In this document: piece by piece, positions 39,708 through 49,791 of the stretch | Position numbering within the stretch: position 1 is the stretch's first letter | Layout: the number at the start of each line of letters is the position of its first letter | Source: a phage | DNA length: 64,000 nucleotides | Sequence record: MZ956761.1 | Reading direction: 5' to 3' (one strand) | The notes under the pieces: generated by a model | What the model was told of the DNA's origin: nothing | Databases searched by the model: none | The model's input: the letters and a program-made list of their open reading frames with translations, nothing else | Position numbers and translations under genes: made by a program

Positions 39708-40404
<697 letters not shown>

Positions 40405-40416
40405 TTTCACAAAGTT

Positions 40417-40455
40417 GTTTACATGCTGATGAGGTAGTGATACTATTACCTCATC
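40417..40455 (+). promoter_or_regulatory. early promoter with stem-loop (PeSL-like), copy 1
   Basis: GTTTAC, 18-nt spacer, TGaTACTAT; -10 sits inside inverted repeat GATGAGGTA/TACCTCATC. Confidence 0.5.
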
Positions 40456-40476
40456 AAAATTAATTAGGAAAATAAA

Positions 40477-40734
40477 ATGAAAACTTTCAAAGAGTTTGCT
40501 ACAAAAACTATTATCACTGAATCTTCTCATGGTATGGAAGTAAAGCTTGGAATGGCTTTAGCTGAAGCTGAGCGTCTTTTCTCTCGTATTAAAGAACTTG
40601 CTGCTGCAGTCGATCCTTCATCTTTTAAAGGAGACCAAACGAAAGTTAAAGCGCTTTTAGCATTATGCTCTGATGCAGGCGAAATCGCTAAGAACGGTTC
40701 TAAGATGAAGAAACGATTAGAAGATTTAAAATAA
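40477..40734 (+). CDS. internal-protein-like small protein with capsid-targeting tag
   Basis: 85 aa; N-terminus MKTFKEFATKTIITE resembles the T4 IP tag with gp21-type (L/I)xE cleavage site. Confidence 0.55.
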   Translation: MKTFKEFATKTIITESSHGMEVKLGMALAEAERLFSRIKELAAAVDPSSFKGDQTKVKALLALCSDAGEIAKNGSKMKKRLEDLK

Positions 40735-40746
40735 TTTCACAAAGTT

Positions 40747-40785
40747 GTTTACACGGGGTTTTAGTAGTGATACTATTACCCTATC
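40747..40785 (+). promoter_or_regulatory. early promoter with stem-loop (PeSL-like), copy 2
   Basis: Near-identical 40-bp repeat of copy 1, offset 330 bp. Confidence 0.5.
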
Positions 40786-40812
40786 AAAACAAATGTGAGA
40801 TTGGAGAATAAA

Positions 40813-41046
40813 ATGAAAACTTATCAAGAATTTATTGCTGAAACTGCTGATGTAAAAGTTGAGTTTATTTATACTGACAAGAAAGATAAAATGGGTGAAA
40901 TGCCTCATGGAGTTCTTCGCGATGCATTAGATAATTTCGGTCAACTCGCTGCAGAAGATTACGGTGATAAAATTGTTGTTACTGGTCCTGCTGCAGTTAT
41001 TGAAAAATGGGCAGCAGAAAATAAATCAATTTTTCGTAAAAAATAA
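40813..41046 (+). CDS. internal protein (IPI-like) with MKTYQEFIAE tag
   Basis: 77 aa from the Met of MKTYQEFIAE; track ORF starts 6 codons earlier at GTG. Confidence 0.6.
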   Translation: MKTYQEFIAETADVKVEFIYTDKKDKMGEMPHGVLRDALDNFGQLAAEDYGDKIVVTGPAAVIEKWAAENKSIFRKK

Positions 41047-41085
41047 GTTTACTTTTAGATAGGGTAGTGATACTATTACCCTATC
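41047..41085 (+). promoter_or_regulatory. early promoter with stem-loop (PeSL-like), copy 3
   Basis: GTTTAC-N18-TACTAT with inverted repeat GATAGGGTA/TACCCTATC around the -10. Confidence 0.5.
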
Positions 41086-41104
41086 AACTACTGAGGAGAA
41101 TAAA

Positions 41105-41290: not shown

Positions 41291-41701
41291 ATGAGTATTA
41301 ACGAATATTATGTTTATGCTGGGGATTATGCAAATCCTTCTCATTTTGAAGGTAATTTAATACCTGATAAAGTTTTTAATACTCCTTTTGAAGCGTGGAG
41401 TTGGATTGAAAGTAAAAATGGATTTTCTTACCGTTATGTTGAAGTAACTGATTGGAGAGGAACTAAATATCCTAAAGACCATTATTACGTAAATCCATCT
41501 AAGGTAAATTTTCTTTTATTCGCAGGTGATAATTATTACCCTTGTGGTGGATATGATGATTTAATTGCGTATGCTGAAACAGAAGATAAACTGCGTGATA
41601 TCATTAAAGAAAATGAAAATAAACCAGATTATGGTTCTAATCGCTTTGACTGGTGGCAAATCGTAAATGCCCATACTCATGCTATTGTTGATAGAGGTTG
41701 A
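41291..41701 (+). CDS. hypothetical protein
   Basis: 136-aa ORF, start overlaps previous stop. Confidence 0.5.
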   Translation: MSINEYYVYAGDYANPSHFEGNLIPDKVFNTPFEAWSWIESKNGFSYRYVEVTDWRGTKYPKDHYYVNPSKVNFLLFAGDNYYPCGGYDDLIAYAETEDKLRDIIKENENKPDYGSNRFDWWQIVNAHTHAIVDRG

Positions 41702-42088: not shown

Positions 42089-42161
42089 TGGGAATTAGCC
42101 AAGTTGGTAAGGCATAGCACTTTGACTGCTAGATGCAAAGGTTCGAGTCCTTTATTCCCAG
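42089..42161 (+). tRNA. tRNA-Gln (anticodon TTG)
   Basis: Hand-folded cloverleaf: acceptor TGGGAAT/ATTCCCA, T-loop TTCGAGT, anticodon loop CTTTGAC. Confidence 0.7.
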
Positions 42162-42162
42162 C

Positions 42163-42249
42163 GCGAGAATGGTCAAATTGGTAAAGGCACAGCACTTAAA
42201 ATGCTGCGGAATGATTTCCTTGTGGGTTCGAGTCCCACTTCTCGCACCA
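42163..42249 (+). tRNA. tRNA-Leu (anticodon TAA)
   Basis: Acceptor GCGAGAA/TTCTCGC, long variable arm, encoded CCA. Confidence 0.75.
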
Positions 42250-42254
42250 AATTT

Positions 42255-42328
<74 letters not shown>

Positions 42329-42338
42329 ATTTAATCTA

Positions 42339-42412
42339 CTCCGTGTAGCTCAGTTTGGTAGAGCGCCTGATTTGGGATCAGGAGGTCCAAGGTTCAAATC
42401 CTTGTATGGAGA
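42339..42412 (+). tRNA. tRNA-Pro (anticodon TGG)
   Basis: D-arm TAGCTCAGTTTGGTAGAGC, anticodon loop TTTGGGA, T-loop TTCAAAT. Confidence 0.7.
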
Positions 42413-42414
42413 CT

Positions 42415-42504
42415 GGAGGCGTGGCAGAGTGGTTTAATGCACCGGTCTTGAAAACCGGCAGTCGCTCCGGCGACTCATAGGTTCAAATCCTATCGCCTCC
42501 GCCA
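42415..42504 (+). tRNA. tRNA-Ser (anticodon TGA)
   Basis: Acceptor GGAGGCG/CGCCTCC, long variable arm, anticodon loop CTTGAAA, CCA. Confidence 0.75.
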
Positions 42505-42509
42505 GTTTT

Positions 42510-42585
42510 GCTGATTTAGCTCAGTAGGTAGAGCAACTCACTTGTAATGAGAAGGTCGGCGGTTCGATTCCGTCAATCAGCACCA
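42510..42585 (+). tRNA. tRNA-Thr (anticodon TGT)
   Basis: Acceptor GCTGATT/AATCAGC, anticodon loop CTTGTAA, CCA. Confidence 0.75.
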
Positions 42586-42586
42586 A

Positions 42587-42661
42587 GGCCCTGTAGCTGG
42601 AAGGTTCAAGCAAGCGACTCATAATCGCCAGATGGTGGTTCAATTCCACCCAGGGCCACCA
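42587..42661 (+). tRNA. tRNA with CAT anticodon (Ile2-type or Met)
   Basis: Acceptor GGCCCTG/CAGGGCC, anticodon loop CTCATAA, CCA. Confidence 0.65.
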
Positions 42662-42674
42662 AATTAAGAATTAA

Positions 42675-42761
42675 GGGGAGTTATCCCGTAGAGGTAGCGG
42701 TGTGGACTGTAAATCCATTGTCATTGCGACTCGGGTGGTTCGACTCCATCACTCCCCACCA
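42675..42761 (+). tRNA. tRNA-Tyr (anticodon GTA), type II
   Basis: Perfect 7-bp acceptor GGGGAGT/ACTCCCC, anticodon loop CTGTAAA, long variable arm, T-loop TTCGACT, CCA. Confidence 0.6.
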
Positions 42762-42765
42762 ATTT

Positions 42766-42840
42766 GGATGTGTAGCTCAATGGCAGAGCGATCGCCTGTT
42801 AAGCGATTGGTTATAGGTTCGAATCCTATCACGTCCGCCA
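42766..42840 (+). tRNA. tRNA-Asn (anticodon GTT)
   Basis: Acceptor GGATGTG/CACGTCC, anticodon loop CTGTTAA, T-loop TTCGAAT, CCA. Confidence 0.65.
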
Positions 42841-42954
42841 AATTTGTGACAACTGTCACATTAATATCTACTTGACGCGATTATAGGGGTTGAACTGATC
42901 ACTCTTCTCTTAATTTCGTGTGAAGACATCTTGATTGTTGGAGTAGGTATTAAT

Positions 42955-43030
42955 GTGGCCGTAGTTCAGTTGGTAGAACTCGAGATTGTGATTCTCGTAG
43001 TCATGGGTTCGACTCCCATCGGTCACCCCA
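42955..43030 (+). tRNA. tRNA-His (anticodon GTG)
   Basis: Acceptor GTGGCCG/CGGTCAC, anticodon loop TTGTGAT, T-loop TTCGACT, CCA. Confidence 0.6.
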
Positions 43031-43034
43031 ATTA

Positions 43035-43110
43035 CGGGGCATAGCTCAGAAGGAAGAGCAAGGACCTTCTAAGTCCTAGGTCGTAGGTTCGATCCCTACT
43101 GCCTCGACCA
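43035..43110 (+). tRNA. tRNA-Arg (anticodon TCT)
   Basis: D-arm TAGCTCAGAAGGAAGAGC, anticodon loop CTTCTAA, T-loop TTCGATC, CCA. Confidence 0.7.
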
Positions 43111-43126: not shown

Positions 43127-43477
43127 ATGAAAGGTAATGTTTATTTAGTAGTTCATGATTTAACATTCTATTTTAATCATAATGACACTGTTATTTCTGA
43201 ACGTGTAATTAATTTGCTTTATCAGCACGCAGATTATGTTTATGTCGAAAACGAATATGGTCATTGGCAATTTCTTAAAAATCGTTCATTTGGCTTAGAT
43301 GGTTACGAATACTTTGAACGTAAAGACCTTTTAGATAAAATTCCGTTATCTACACAATATCAAAATCACAAATCTTTATATAAATGCCGACCAATTCGAA
43401 ATGTTGAATCCGCGTATGAAGCAATTGATTTATGGCGTAAACGCCGTGAACAGATTGATGCTTTAAAAGAATATTAA
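43127..43477 (+). CDS. hypothetical protein downstream of tRNA cluster
   Basis: 116-aa ORF with GAGGAAAA SD. Confidence 0.5.
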   Translation: MKGNVYLVVHDLTFYFNHNDTVISERVINLLYQHADYVYVENEYGHWQFLKNRSFGLDGYEYFERKDLLDKIPLSTQYQNHKSLYKCRPIRNVESAYEAIDLWRKRREQIDALKEY

Positions 43478-43479
43478 GA

Positions 43480-43785
43480 AACCGGGTCGCTACCGGTAAG
43501 TCGTCGGACTGATGTTCCCTGAGTAAGGAATTGTGTTAATAAATCTTTATGATTTGTTGATGCCCTCTTACATCACAGCAGAAACGGCGCACCGAATTAT
43601 CGATTCGAGGAAATATCTTTGCCATAAGCCGAGTAGCGTTTTTGACGGAACGTTCGGATATGGTCGAGATATGGCCTTTTAAAAATATTGAGTAGCGTCA
43701 ACTACTTAATAACCGGGTTCGAATCCCGGCGTTTCGTACAAACACTTGCCTTAGCAGGTGGAACCCCGACAAGGTTGCCGCAAGG
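43480..43785 (+). ncRNA. putative small stable RNA(s) (T4 species 1/2-like), tRNA-like elements
   Basis: About 300 bp without ORF; canonical T-arm-like CCGGG-TTCGAAT-CCCGG; ends at a terminator hairpin. Confidence 0.3.
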
Positions 43786-43816
43786 CTTAGCCCCGACCGA
43801 AAGGTTGGGGCTTTTT
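43786..43816 (+). repeat. 31-bp direct repeat with terminator hairpin (left copy)
   Basis: CTTAGCCCCGACCGAAAGGTTGGGGCTTTTT, identical to the copy at 44341. Confidence 0.7.
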
Positions 43817-43818
43817 AG

Positions 43819-43826
43819 TATAAATA
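43819..43826 (+). promoter_or_regulatory. T4-type late promoter (TATAAATA)
   Basis: Exact TATAAATA about 37 bp upstream of the ATG at 43863. Confidence 0.45.
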
Positions 43827-43862
43827 AGTATATTAAAACCACGAATTAAAACAGGAAATAAG

Positions 43863-44336
43863 ATGAAATCATATGCTCAATTTTTAAATGAAGCGGTGTT
43901 AAATGAAGCATCTAGCACCGAAATTCAAGCTGTTGCAAAAGCTGCCATTGCCGCGGGTAAATATTCCTATAAGGATGCTTCCGATGAATCACGATTCCAA
44001 TTTGCTCGTGATATGAAAGCCGAAGGATTTACAGGGAATGCAGTTAGTATGGCTTGGAAAAGTTTAGTTGCTACTGGAGCTGCTTTTGCAAAGGCTTCAG
44101 GTAAACCTGCTCCTAAGGCTGACCCTAAAGCAGCACAAGAAAAAAATATTGCTAAAGGAATTATCTCTAGGTATGAAGCAATTCTTAAAGAACTTTTGAT
44201 AATTAAGACCGAAGGCCAGAAACTTGCGCGAGCTCATAGTTTCAAAGATAATCCACATGCTCATGACCTAGAGTATGTTGAAGACATCCAAAAAATTATT
44301 AAAGACCGCATTTGGTCTGCTAAACAAATCAAATAA
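43863..44336 (+). CDS. capsid-targeting-tag protein (internal-protein-like), 157 aa
   Basis: N-terminus MKSYAQFLNE resembles the IP tag MKTYQEFIAE; late promoter upstream; flanked by identical 31-bp repeats. Confidence 0.5.
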   Translation: MKSYAQFLNEAVLNEASSTEIQAVAKAAIAAGKYSYKDASDESRFQFARDMKAEGFTGNAVSMAWKSLVATGAAFAKASGKPAPKADPKAAQEKNIAKGIISRYEAILKELLIIKTEGQKLARAHSFKDNPHAHDLEYVEDIQKIIKDRIWSAKQIK

Positions 44337-44340
44337 CATT

Positions 44341-44371
44341 CTTAGCCCCGACCGAAAGGTTGGGGCTTTTT
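44341..44371 (+). repeat. 31-bp direct repeat with terminator hairpin (right copy)
   Basis: Identical 31-mer immediately after the stop of the 43863 ORF. Confidence 0.7.
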
Positions 44372-44503
44372 GGTATCTAGGCCTTTCCGGGCCTCTCTAG
44401 GCATCATTTAGTTTATACCCTTTATAATATATTATCCTACCTTTTAATTGCCCCTCCTGACCCTAGAATTCCCTAAAAATTTTTAAAATTTTTTCACAAA
44501 ACG

Positions 44504-44546
44504 GTTTACATCCCCGTTCTTCCATGGTACTATACAACTATCAACT
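44504..44546 (+). promoter_or_regulatory. T4-type early promoter
   Basis: GTTTAC-N18-TGgTACTAT followed by conserved ACAACTATCAACT; AT-rich upstream element. Confidence 0.5.
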
Positions 44547-44576
44547 ACTGATATAGAAAACAACTTGGAGAACGAA

Positions 44577-44840
44577 ATGGATAATTACGGCGAACTGTTC
44601 AACTTCTTTATGAAATGCGTTTCAGAAGATTTCGGTCGTACAGTGAATGATATTAAAGTTATCGGTCCTGATCATCCGATGTTTGAAACTTACGCAGTAA
44701 TGGGTAATGAAGATGGTCAGTGGTATACTGTAAAGGTTGTGATTAATATGTTCACGGCAGAAGGTTATGTTAAACTGTCTTCTAAAGTTTACCATGATAA
44801 CGATGAAATCGCAGAAGAATATTTCAATAATATGAAATAA
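44577..44840 (+). CDS. hypothetical early protein
   Basis: 87 aa from ATG with GGAG SD (track ORF begins at TTG 44565). Confidence 0.5.
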   Translation: MDNYGELFNFFMKCVSEDFGRTVNDIKVIGPDHPMFETYAVMGNEDGQWYTVKVVINMFTAEGYVKLSSKVYHDNDEIAEEYFNNMK

Positions 44841-48983: not shown

Positions 48984-49301
48984 ATGAAAACGTATAAAGA
49001 ATTTATTGCAGAATCTGCTGCAGGACAACGTGTAGAAGGCGGTTATATCTGGATTGAACAAGTTGAGCCGCCGAGTCGCACTTCTACGGGTAAATGGAAA
49101 ATCACTGTTGATGGTCCTGGTGGTAAACGTAGGACTCTTAAAGAAATTAACGGGTACTATGAAGAAGCTCTTTCTGACGCGGGTACTTATATGATGCAAA
49201 TCATGATTAAAAACCCAGAAAATCGTTTTGCGGCTAGAGTTTTCCGCCGTATTGGAAATAAGCTTTATGATGCATATTCTAAAAACTTTCCTAAAGAATA
49301 A
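48984..49301 (+). CDS. internal head protein (IPII/IPIII-type)
   Basis: 105 aa; N-terminal MKTYKEFIAE capsid-targeting tag. Confidence 0.7.
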   Translation: MKTYKEFIAESAAGQRVEGGYIWIEQVEPPSRTSTGKWKITVDGPGGKRRTLKEINGYYEEALSDAGTYMMQIMIKNPENRFAARVFRRIGNKLYDAYSKNFPKE

Positions 49302-49317
49302 AAATTAAAGGATACAC

Positions 49318-49791
49318 ATGAAAACATATCAAGAATTTATTACTGAAGCAGCTATTAATTCTCAAATTATTGCTGAATCTTTTACTGATCTTTTGAAATT
49401 TAAAAAAGGTCAAAAAATCACTGCTGTATTGGATGATGGTACAGAAGTTGAGATGGATGTACAGGGATATAATTATGCAGTAGATGGAAAACTGTATAAT
49501 AAATCTCATGCTAAATTTGATTCATTTGACGACTTTGTTAATACAGTTGAAGATGAAAAAACTCGTAGATCCATTGCAACTGGTGATGCTAAGGTTCTTA
49601 TGGCACATGGTCATGAACGCATTCGCGCTAAACAGAATAAAATGGGTGAAGATAATTTTGCATTAGTTGGTTATCAATCTGGTAAACAAACTTATGGCTA
49701 TCAGCGTACTGCTACCATGTATAACAAAAATGGTAAAATCGCTTTCGTGAATAGCAAAGGCTCTATTCAGTACGTCAAATCATTCAAATAA
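49318..49791 (+). CDS. internal head protein (IPII/IPIII-type)
   Basis: 157 aa; N-terminal MKTYQEFITE capsid-targeting tag. Confidence 0.7.
   Translation: MKTYQEFITEAAINSQIIAESFTDLLKFKKGQKITAVLDDGTEVEMDVQGYNYAVDGKLYNKSHAKFDSFDDFVNTVEDEKTRRSIATGDAKVLMAHGHERIRAKQNKMGEDNFALVGYQSGKQTYGYQRTATMYNKNGKIAFVNSKGSIQYVKSFK

Follow-up and report, generated by a model that had tools for sequence, protein, structure and literature searches.

A leader-tagged, predicted late gene between identical terminator hairpins at the rnaC-e.8 site of Tequatrovirus phages, a probable internal-protein cassette

The DNA analyzed here is a 64,000-nt stretch of phage sequence (record MZ956761.1, hereafter the window) that is 100% identical to Escherichia phage ADUt (OQ466432.1, Tequatrovirus). 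Between the small stable RNA gene rnaC and gene e.8 it contains a gene for a 157-aa protein, which we call gene A, bracketed by two identical copies of a terminator hairpin. The gene is preceded by a late promoter, its product starts with a leader of the type known from the internal proteins (IPs) that T4 packages in its head and injects, and related phages carry or lack the gene, with the junctions falling at the hairpin. We consider it likely that gene A forms a self-contained IP cassette, consisting of late promoter, leader-tagged open reading frame (ORF) and terminator, that sits directly after the terminator of the tRNA/rnaD/rnaC unit and is gained or lost at the repeats. The anatomy of the site and its recombinational modularity at the hairpins were observed directly, while processing, packaging and injection of the protein are proposed by analogy with T4. 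An earlier note, made from the sequence without database searches, had interpreted the site in a similar way and is largely supported, although it did not recognize that the cassette architecture is a known theme of T-even IP loci. The elements of the cassette are as follows.

43786-43821, + strand: repeat copy 1, with a stem-loop at 43789-43812, a T-run to 43816 and AGTAT running into the late promoter
43819-43826, + strand: T4-type late promoter TATAAATA, 36 nt before the ATG of gene A and overlapping the last 3 nt of the 36-nt repeat
43853-43858, + strand: ribosome-binding site AGGAAA, read from the sequence, 4 nt upstream of the gene A ATG
43863-44336, + strand: gene A, 157 aa, starting MKSYAQFLNE, a candidate internal (head-packaged, injected) protein
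43884-43913, + strand: 15-nt tandem duplication (TTAAATGAAGCGGTG / TTAAATGAAGCATCT) that doubles the LNE/A motif behind the leader
44341-44376, + strand: repeat copy 2, with a stem-loop at 44344-44367, a T-run to 44371 and GGTAT continuing into the e.8-side flank

The 31-mer CTTAGCCCCGACCGAAAGGTTGGGGCTTTTT occurs exactly twice in the window, at 43786-43816 and 44341-44371, confirming the identical direct repeats reported before. No further match with up to three mismatches was found in the 64 kb, and 100 shuffled sequences gave 0 matches. The repeat reaches 36 nt when a single A/G mismatch (43817/44372) is included. Each copy consists of a 10-bp stem, a GAAA loop and a following T5; copy 1 and the centroid structure of copy 2 both have a folding energy of -20.3 kcal/mol (minimum free energy of copy 2, -20.5). 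The folding z-scores were -3.9 for copy 1 and -4.7 for copy 2, with 0 of 200 shuffles as stable, and a terminator scan picked up both copies. With a GC-rich stem-loop and a U-run at the end of a transcription unit, both copies are predicted intrinsic terminators, which agrees with the earlier description of each repeat as a terminator hairpin. Copy 1 is the terminator after rnaC, where T4 has the identical hairpin and T-run once, and copy 2, located after the stop codon of gene A, is the predicted terminator of that gene. The presence of the same hairpin beside the other IP genes of the window was considered and ruled out, as there are only two copies in the 64 kb.

The exact late promoter that had been noticed upstream of gene A is present at the position listed above. 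The octamer TATAAATA was counted 22 times in the window against 9.9 expected, and by itself it is weak evidence. It is, however, kept at the same position in the orthologous Tequatrovirus loci, and it is the sole promoter-like element between copy 1 and the ATG of gene A, an interval in which no sigma-70-like site was found. These signals predict the late expression that is characteristic of internal proteins.

The interval was extracted from 27 loci, anchored on the 3' end of rnaC and the start of e.8; the survey was based on INPHARED records, and IMG/VR gave 10 related loci. The proposal that a cassette lies between repeated terminators had called for a comparison of relatives, and this comparison revealed presence or absence exactly at the repeat, with four states of the site.

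Empty: T4, RB7, BCPSen_003 and BYEP01; 272 nt (BYEP01 210 nt); one hairpin, then GGTATCTA(A/G)GCCTTTCC
A only: ADUt, Aplg8, fPS-2, fD1 and others; 826-833 nt, shorter alleles 785-817 nt
B only: IME340, Pu-Krd-SF1 and RB69 (frameshifted); 958-960 nt
A+B: PinkRuby, ECML-134, JB75 and three IMG/VR contigs; ~1505-1520 nt

All junctions between these states fall at the hairpin/T-run. Empty genomes correspond exactly to A-only genomes minus gene A and one hairpin, and their GGTATCTA(A/G)GCCTTTCC is the sequence found 3' of copy 2 in the window. In B-only genomes the order is rnaC-hairpin-TTTTTAGTTTGAATCAC...; taking gene A and one hairpin out of an A+B genome gives precisely this. The right-hand flank of the cassette contains GGTATCTAGGCCTTTCC, as do T4 and RB7 at their empty site, and in A+B phages this sequence is located 3' of the B terminator. 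Of the 753 matching records, 60 were sampled at even spacing; they comprised ~23 A-only, 9 A+B, 3 B-only and 6 empty sites, together with 4 diverged forms of A. With tblastn, A was detected in 512 phage records and B in 165. A 38-nt hairpin query matched 1316 places in 818 records; among the sampled non-Klebsiella rows, the hairpin was present once in 13, twice in 29 and three times in 6.

Gene B, which is absent from the window, encodes a 187-aa protein starting MKTYAEFLTE, a leader of the same type, and has its own terminator, CCCTATCTAAATGATAGGGCTTTTT, as well as a near-consensus late promoter, AATAAATA. It is unannotated, and was located at 1363-1926 of the PinkRuby locus (L005) and also in L017, L019, L020 and L027. 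In RB69, gene B is frameshifted into ORF149c and ORF148c.

The earlier note held that relatives carrying the gene without flanking repeats would speak against a cassette. All examined Tequatrovirus and Mosigvirus relatives that carry gene A have flanking hairpins of the same family, whereas the distant Klebsiella phage KP1 (Jiaodavirus) has unrelated terminators on each side of its homologue. The KP1 homologue has its N-terminal domain in common with gene A and occupies the same place, directly after the tRNA cluster, with a different hairpin and TTTTTAGTATAAATA upstream and an unrelated hairpin downstream. The plan of the module (terminator, late promoter, tagged ORF, terminator) therefore predates the identical repeats, which are a Tequatrovirus/Mosigvirus feature.

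A different kind of insert was observed in an IMG/VR contig from a diverged relative (L015; ~35-1200 after the rnaC anchor), in which direct repeats of the hairpin variant GGCCCTTCCGAAAGGTTGGGC bracket two genes. One is an A homologue with its own, different terminator; the other is a ~185-aa ORF counted from its ATG (219 aa from an upstream in-frame start) that has the look of a membrane protein and no leader. The rnaC-e.8 site therefore also takes cargo other than internal proteins.

Comparison of the hairpin copies points to exchange between them. The stem variants GCCCCGACC and GCCCCAGCC, which differ by two bases (GACC and AGCC), pair with the same 3' arm TT via G.U, a tolerance that would fit selection on an RNA hairpin. 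Depending on the genome, GACC or AGCC is found in copy 1, copy 2, both or neither, and a third stem variant, TTCC, is present on both copies in Mosigviruses (JK45, KMB38 and an IMG/VR contig). Conversion or crossing-over between the copies, inside one genome or from one genome to another, best explains this pattern. The empty site of BCPSen_003 reads TTTTTAGTATCTAGG, a copy-1-type A followed by the copy-2 flank, as would be expected for a chimeric deletion product, with a point mutation as the alternative. Three hairpins were found in BYEP02 (L006; 39-142 after the rnaC anchor), where 81 nt comprising the rnaC 3' tail and terminator are tandemly duplicated ahead of the cassette and the duplicated hairpins differ in the stem, GACC followed by AGCC. 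This could be a product of unequal recombination or an assembly artefact, the record being only 154.7 kb long.

The ORF of gene A and its MKSYAQFLNE start were found where they had been reported. When all six frames of the 64-kb window were searched for the pattern MK[TS][YF]x[EQK]F, it was detected in only five ORFs, each time at the start codon and always on the + strand, and these five fall at three sites (40477 and 40813; 43863; 48984 and 49318). The gene A leader fits this pattern and was aligned to the leaders of T4 IPI, IPII and IPIII. In T4, a capsid targeting sequence (CTS) directs encapsidation (PMC3012670). The L/I-x-E motif of the prohead protease gp21 is present as LNE/A at residues 8-10 and 13-15. 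The five duplicated residues are absent from some alleles (L022, P0004 and L015 in the alignment; SP21535 was also named), and the duplication might create two alternative mature N-termini, with the predicted mature start at Ala11 (AVLNEASSTEIQAVAK) or Ala16 (ASSTEIQAVAK). Leader and L-x-E are kept in homologues at 39-43% identity in the protein alignment.

Behind the leader (codons 1-10) the protein consists of a helical N-domain (~18-71), a Lys/Pro/Ala linker (~72-87) and a helical hairpin (88-154). An AlphaFold2 model of moderate quality (pLDDT 72.5, pTM 0.44) is all-helical with two domains. The conserved N-domain (~16-75) recurs in the alignment in Klebsiella and Yersinia phage proteins with another C-terminus. 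At ~16 kDa and a pI of ~9.4, the mature protein would be small and basic, like known internal proteins. Beyond the leader, gene A showed no likeness to T4 IPI, IPII or IPIII, to B, or to the other tagged ORFs of the window; kinship with the other tagged 157-aa protein (49318-49791) was considered and ruled out, as the two have no similarity. In PHROGs the gene belongs to phrog_2280, 'unknown function', and its database names are all uninformative, mostly 'hypothetical protein' and also 'Phage protein' and 'gp36'. A 94-aa protein (P0014) on a Logan contig of 2898 nt is a chimera whose N-terminal part resembles tRNA.3 (window 41291-41701) and continues in frame into the final ~27 residues of gene A, and looks as if it arose from deletion of the tRNA cluster, rnaD/rnaC and most of A.

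Virion data are available for an orthologue. Gp140 of Yersinia phage fD1, a 157-aa protein ~95% identical to gene A that likewise adjoins e.8, was listed as a phage-particle-associated protein (PPAP) at the strict threshold of liquid chromatography-tandem mass spectrometry (LC-MS/MS), and the adjacent e.8 was not detected (PMC8309999 Table S3). The same particle list also contains DenV, NudE and Tk (PMC8309999). We regard the detection of Gp140 as supportive rather than decisive for packaging of the gene A protein. With leader, L-x-E motif, late promoter and an orthologue in a virion dataset of low specificity, gene A remains consistent with a head-packaged protein, as the earlier note had suggested.

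Based on these observations, we propose that copy 1 would end early and middle transcription arriving from the tRNA cluster, that TATAAATA would drive gene A late in infection, and that copy 2 would end the gene A transcript ahead of the early promoter of e.8. MKSYAQFLNE would act as a CTS that takes the protein into the prohead scaffolding core, and gp21 would cut off the leader after Glu10 (LNE/A), possibly also after Glu15. The mature, basic, helical protein would be packaged with the DNA, injected along with it, and would neutralize a host defence acting on the incoming glucosyl-hydroxymethylcytosine DNA. By analogy with Ip1-3, an anti-defence role would be the most plausible one, and a GmrSD-type Type IV restriction enzyme the most plausible target. 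In the simplest mechanism, homologous recombination between the repeats would delete the 555-bp unit and leave one chimeric copy, as at the empty site of T4; the unit would be inserted when this reaction runs backwards or when DNA is exchanged with a relative infecting the same cell. Excision and integration would pass through a circle, the route demonstrated for ORFs between PeSL repeats in RB49/phi1 (PMC2839356). The rnaC-e.8 site would thus be a small array of units that is empty or holds A, B or A+B. Most exchanges may use the repeats themselves instead of the long flanks, and any one event could have been a gain or a loss.

Several observations weigh against this interpretation, some of them directed at the protein. 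Four of the ten residues in its leader (S3, A5, L8 and N9) deviate from MKTYQEFIAE, Q6 in place of E being allowed by the consensus used in the earlier note. The virion proteome of fD1 is unspecific, including 113-137 of 277 gene products and 672 host proteins (PMC8309999). With regard to function, the Pfam search with gene A returned only sub-threshold noise, NCBIfam gave none, a PDB profile search had 0 matches, and Foldseek found nothing below E = 1 in the PDB and solely the gene's own uncharacterised orthologues in BFVD. Gene A might instead be an ordinary late gene whose product is not packaged, its leader a relic of recombination with the 5' end of an IP gene and its detection in virions a contamination. 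The noncanonical leader, the clearly non-structural enzymes in the fD1 particle proteome and the uninformative, mostly 'hypothetical protein' names would all agree with this. It is nevertheless quite improbable in our judgement, as leader and L-x-E are held at the N-terminus down to 39-43% identity while the rest diverges, the neighbouring cassette gene B bears the same leader, the expression signals are of late type only, the protein is small and basic like known internal proteins, and fD1 Gp140 passed the strict threshold while the adjacent e.8 was undetected.

Other points against the proposed cassette concern recombination. For T4 recombination to be efficient, a homology of 31-36 nt is short. 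Relatives that infect the same cell can transfer the cassette via the long, ~95% identical flanks with the repeats unused, and the precision of the junctions may in part reflect survivorship, as modules that are not intact would probably be lost to selection. The KP1 homologue lacks identical flanking repeats. Neighbour-joining trees built from either flank mix the four states, which argues against a single ancient event, but these trees rest on 288-494 nt, are poorly resolved, derive from highly recombinogenic genomes and are too short for counting independent events. The repeats could be just terminators, identical by past duplication or conversion, with presence and absence generated by homologous recombination in the long flanks during mixed infections. 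The flanks are ~93-98% identical over hundreds of bases in hundreds of phages, the copies share only 31-36 nt, and KP1, with its unrelated terminators, indicates that the gene needs no identical repeats. Exchange in the flanks, however, moves existing alleles and leaves the origin of junctions exactly at the hairpin unexplained. Moreover, stem variants swap copy positions and lineage-specific variants occupy both copies, so the copies interact, and BYEP02 has the extra 81-nt tandem copy of rnaC tail and hairpin. We consider this explanation unlikely overall, though it deserves to be taken seriously. It is also conceivable, although rather improbable, that structure or sequence directs recombination at the GC-rich inverted repeat (GCCCC...GGGGC), by cruciform/hairpin cleavage or by Mosig's GGGC/GCCC deletion pathway, which would make this an integron-like cassette site lacking any known integrase. 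The B cassette ends in another hairpin (CCCTATC...GATAGGGC) yet joins the same right flank at GGGCTTTTTGG, a junction that has the hairpin end and T-run in common and only ~11 nt of homology; what Arbiol et al. say, in the passage concerned, about approximately half of the 13 T4 deletions mapped by Mosig et al. also favors such a pathway. On the other hand, homology accounts equally for all A junctions, and neither the window ORFs nor the annotation revealed a candidate recombinase encoded at the rnaC-e.8 site. Both flank exchange and a hairpin-directed pathway are not mutually exclusive with recombination between the repeats. A chance match or an assembly artefact as the source of the duplicate is refuted, with virtually no probability left: no match appeared in 100 shuffles, the two-copy arrangement is present in hundreds of independently sequenced phages, and no point in support of this explanation was found.

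The cassette was compared with known systems. Gene A resembles T4 IPI, IPII and IPIII and the T-even IP variants in having a ~10-residue leader of the MKTYQEFIAE type ending in L/I-x-E, in being a small basic protein, and further in its variable site, non-essential gene, late promoter, detection of an orthologue in a virion dataset of low specificity and similarity limited to the leader. The absence of similarity beyond the leader is a hallmark of Ip1-3 (PMC12373910), and Ip1, Ip2 and Ip3 each inhibit a distinct GmrSD Type IV restriction enzyme (Silas et al. 2025, PMC12373910). The location differs: ipI lies next to 57B and ipII/ipIII lie between denV and e, whereas gene A lies between rnaC and e.8. 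The canonical IP loci are separately occupied in the window (40477-41046 and 48984-49791), and T4 has nothing between rnaC and e.8. Gene A also differs from the T4 proteins by its leader variant (S3, A5, Q6, L8, N9) and by the cleavage motif duplicated in this allele, and it was annotated as an internal protein in no record examined. Silas et al. refer to 'the two Ip loci' (PMC12373910), and one paper explicitly notes that such genes are absent elsewhere in T-even genomes; Petrov 2010 and Nolan 2006 make no mention of internal proteins.

In RB49/phi1, ORFs that lie between repeated regulatory motifs are lost or acquired by recombination between these motifs, with mini-circles as intermediates (Arbiol 2010, PMC2839356). 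As Arbiol 2010, Comeau 2014, Rao and Black 2010 and Silas 2025 recount it, Repoila 1994 described both IP loci of T-even phages as hyperpolymorphic, with leader ORFs accompanied by repeated regulatory elements; these elements are likened to PeSLs (promoter-early stem-loops), being built on early promoters and having weak AT-rich stem-loops (Arbiol 2010, PMC2839356). The PeSLs of RB49/phi1, PST and nt-1 (PMC2839356, PMC4122927) and the ~70-bp elements of the IP loci have in common with the present site that small ORFs lie between direct repeats of a stem-loop regulatory motif, that a single motif replaces the ORF in relatives, and that units form tandem arrays in hyperplastic regions. In contrast to these elements, which fuse an early promoter (-35/-10, AT-rich region, SD) to the stem-loop, the repeat described here is a strong GC-rich intrinsic terminator without an early promoter, it is shorter (31-36 nt), and the late promoter TATAAATA lies mostly outside it, after copy 1 only. 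Copy 1 is the same element as the rho-independent terminator of T4 rnaC; in ADUt-type phages it differs in being duplicated, with the second copy ending the inserted gene. Integron gene cassettes offer an analogy only. They are likewise single-ORF units bounded by imperfect inverted repeats and stacked at one variable site, but they carry attC and are promoterless, whereas the units here have their own promoter, neither integrase nor attI, and presumably depend on general homologous recombination of the phage. The principle that IP genes are shuffled via repeated flanking regulatory elements is already known from Repoila 1994 and the PeSL papers. What is new relative to the literature compared, with Repoila 1994, Miller 2003 and Comeau 2007 lying outside it, is a candidate third IP locus, its terminator/late-promoter flank and two families that are nowhere annotated as internal proteins.

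The surroundings of the site are arranged as follows, all on the + strand.

Left part, + strand: gene 1, 57A, 57B; IP genes 40477-40734 and 40813-41046; tRNA.4, tRNA.3, tRNA.2
Middle, + strand: eleven tRNAs (42089-43110); a 116-aa ORF; rnaD, rnaC; the gene A site
43475-43593 and 43600-43738, + strand: rnaD and rnaC, small stable RNAs at the end of the tRNA transcription unit, transferred from the Aplg8 annotation
44377-44840, + strand: right conserved flank, intergenic with an early-type promoter (44505-44533), then gene e.8 (44577-44840)
Right part, + strand: e.8 (44577-44840), e.6 ... nudE, e; leader-bearing genes 48984-49301 and 49318-49791

The genes rnaD and rnaC form the left, conserved flank of the cassette and have the same order as in T4 and RB7. 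Their source coordinates in Aplg8 are L002 2876-2994 and 3001-3139, with the match beginning at window 43600, and Rfam contained no model for rnaC, rnaD or the hairpin. In the GenBank record of ADUt, both stable RNAs and the terminators are without annotation, and 'hypothetical protein' coding sequences are placed at 43533-43682, 43688-43849 and 44275-44400, over rnaD, over rnaC and copy 1, and over the end of gene A and copy 2, respectively; these three are very likely spurious. The 116-aa ORF (43127-43477) is located between tRNA-Arg and rnaD, and in T4, fPS-2 and ECML-134 the homing endonuclease gene segB is located upstream of tRNA-Arg. The window has 11 tRNAs (including Met, Tyr, Asn and His) compared to 8 in T4, which marks a further variable spot in the same region.

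The two canonical IP sites of the window are organized differently. At the ipI site, both tagged genes are preceded by a ~76-nt element resembling an early promoter (GTTTACA...TACTAT overlapping a stem-loop). Its copies at 40389-40464 and 40719-40794 share 84% identity, and an incomplete third one lies upstream of tRNA.4 at 41047-41087; these repeats match the 'PeSL-like' elements of IP loci as later papers attribute them to Repoila 1994. The ipII/ipIII site (48984-49791) contains two tagged genes, one of 105 aa and one of 157 aa, whose only resemblance to T4 IPII and IPIII is the leader; they lie 16 nt apart with no terminator between them, unlike the rnaC-e.8 organization.

Injected internal proteins are the first countermeasure of the phage to host immunity, and A and B are candidates that could supply new anti-defence functions and account for differences in host range between T4-like phages used in therapy. 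As a tentative proposal, which we regard as possible though somewhat doubtful, rnaC-e.8 may be a third, hitherto undescribed hotspot of injected internal proteins in Tevenvirinae, its position kept from Tequatrovirus/Mosigvirus to Jiaodavirus; A and B would be new inhibitors of defences against modified DNA (e.g., GmrSD/Type IV subtypes), moved at a terminator/late-promoter element that would be the late-gene counterpart of the PeSL. T4 is naturally without A and B, so that a gain-of-function test is simple. With its four states and base-precise junctions, the site is a clear case in nature of a cassette gained and lost at a repeated terminator. To a T4 specialist the finding will be unsurprising in principle; its value lies in two widespread and tractable candidate injected anti-defence proteins.

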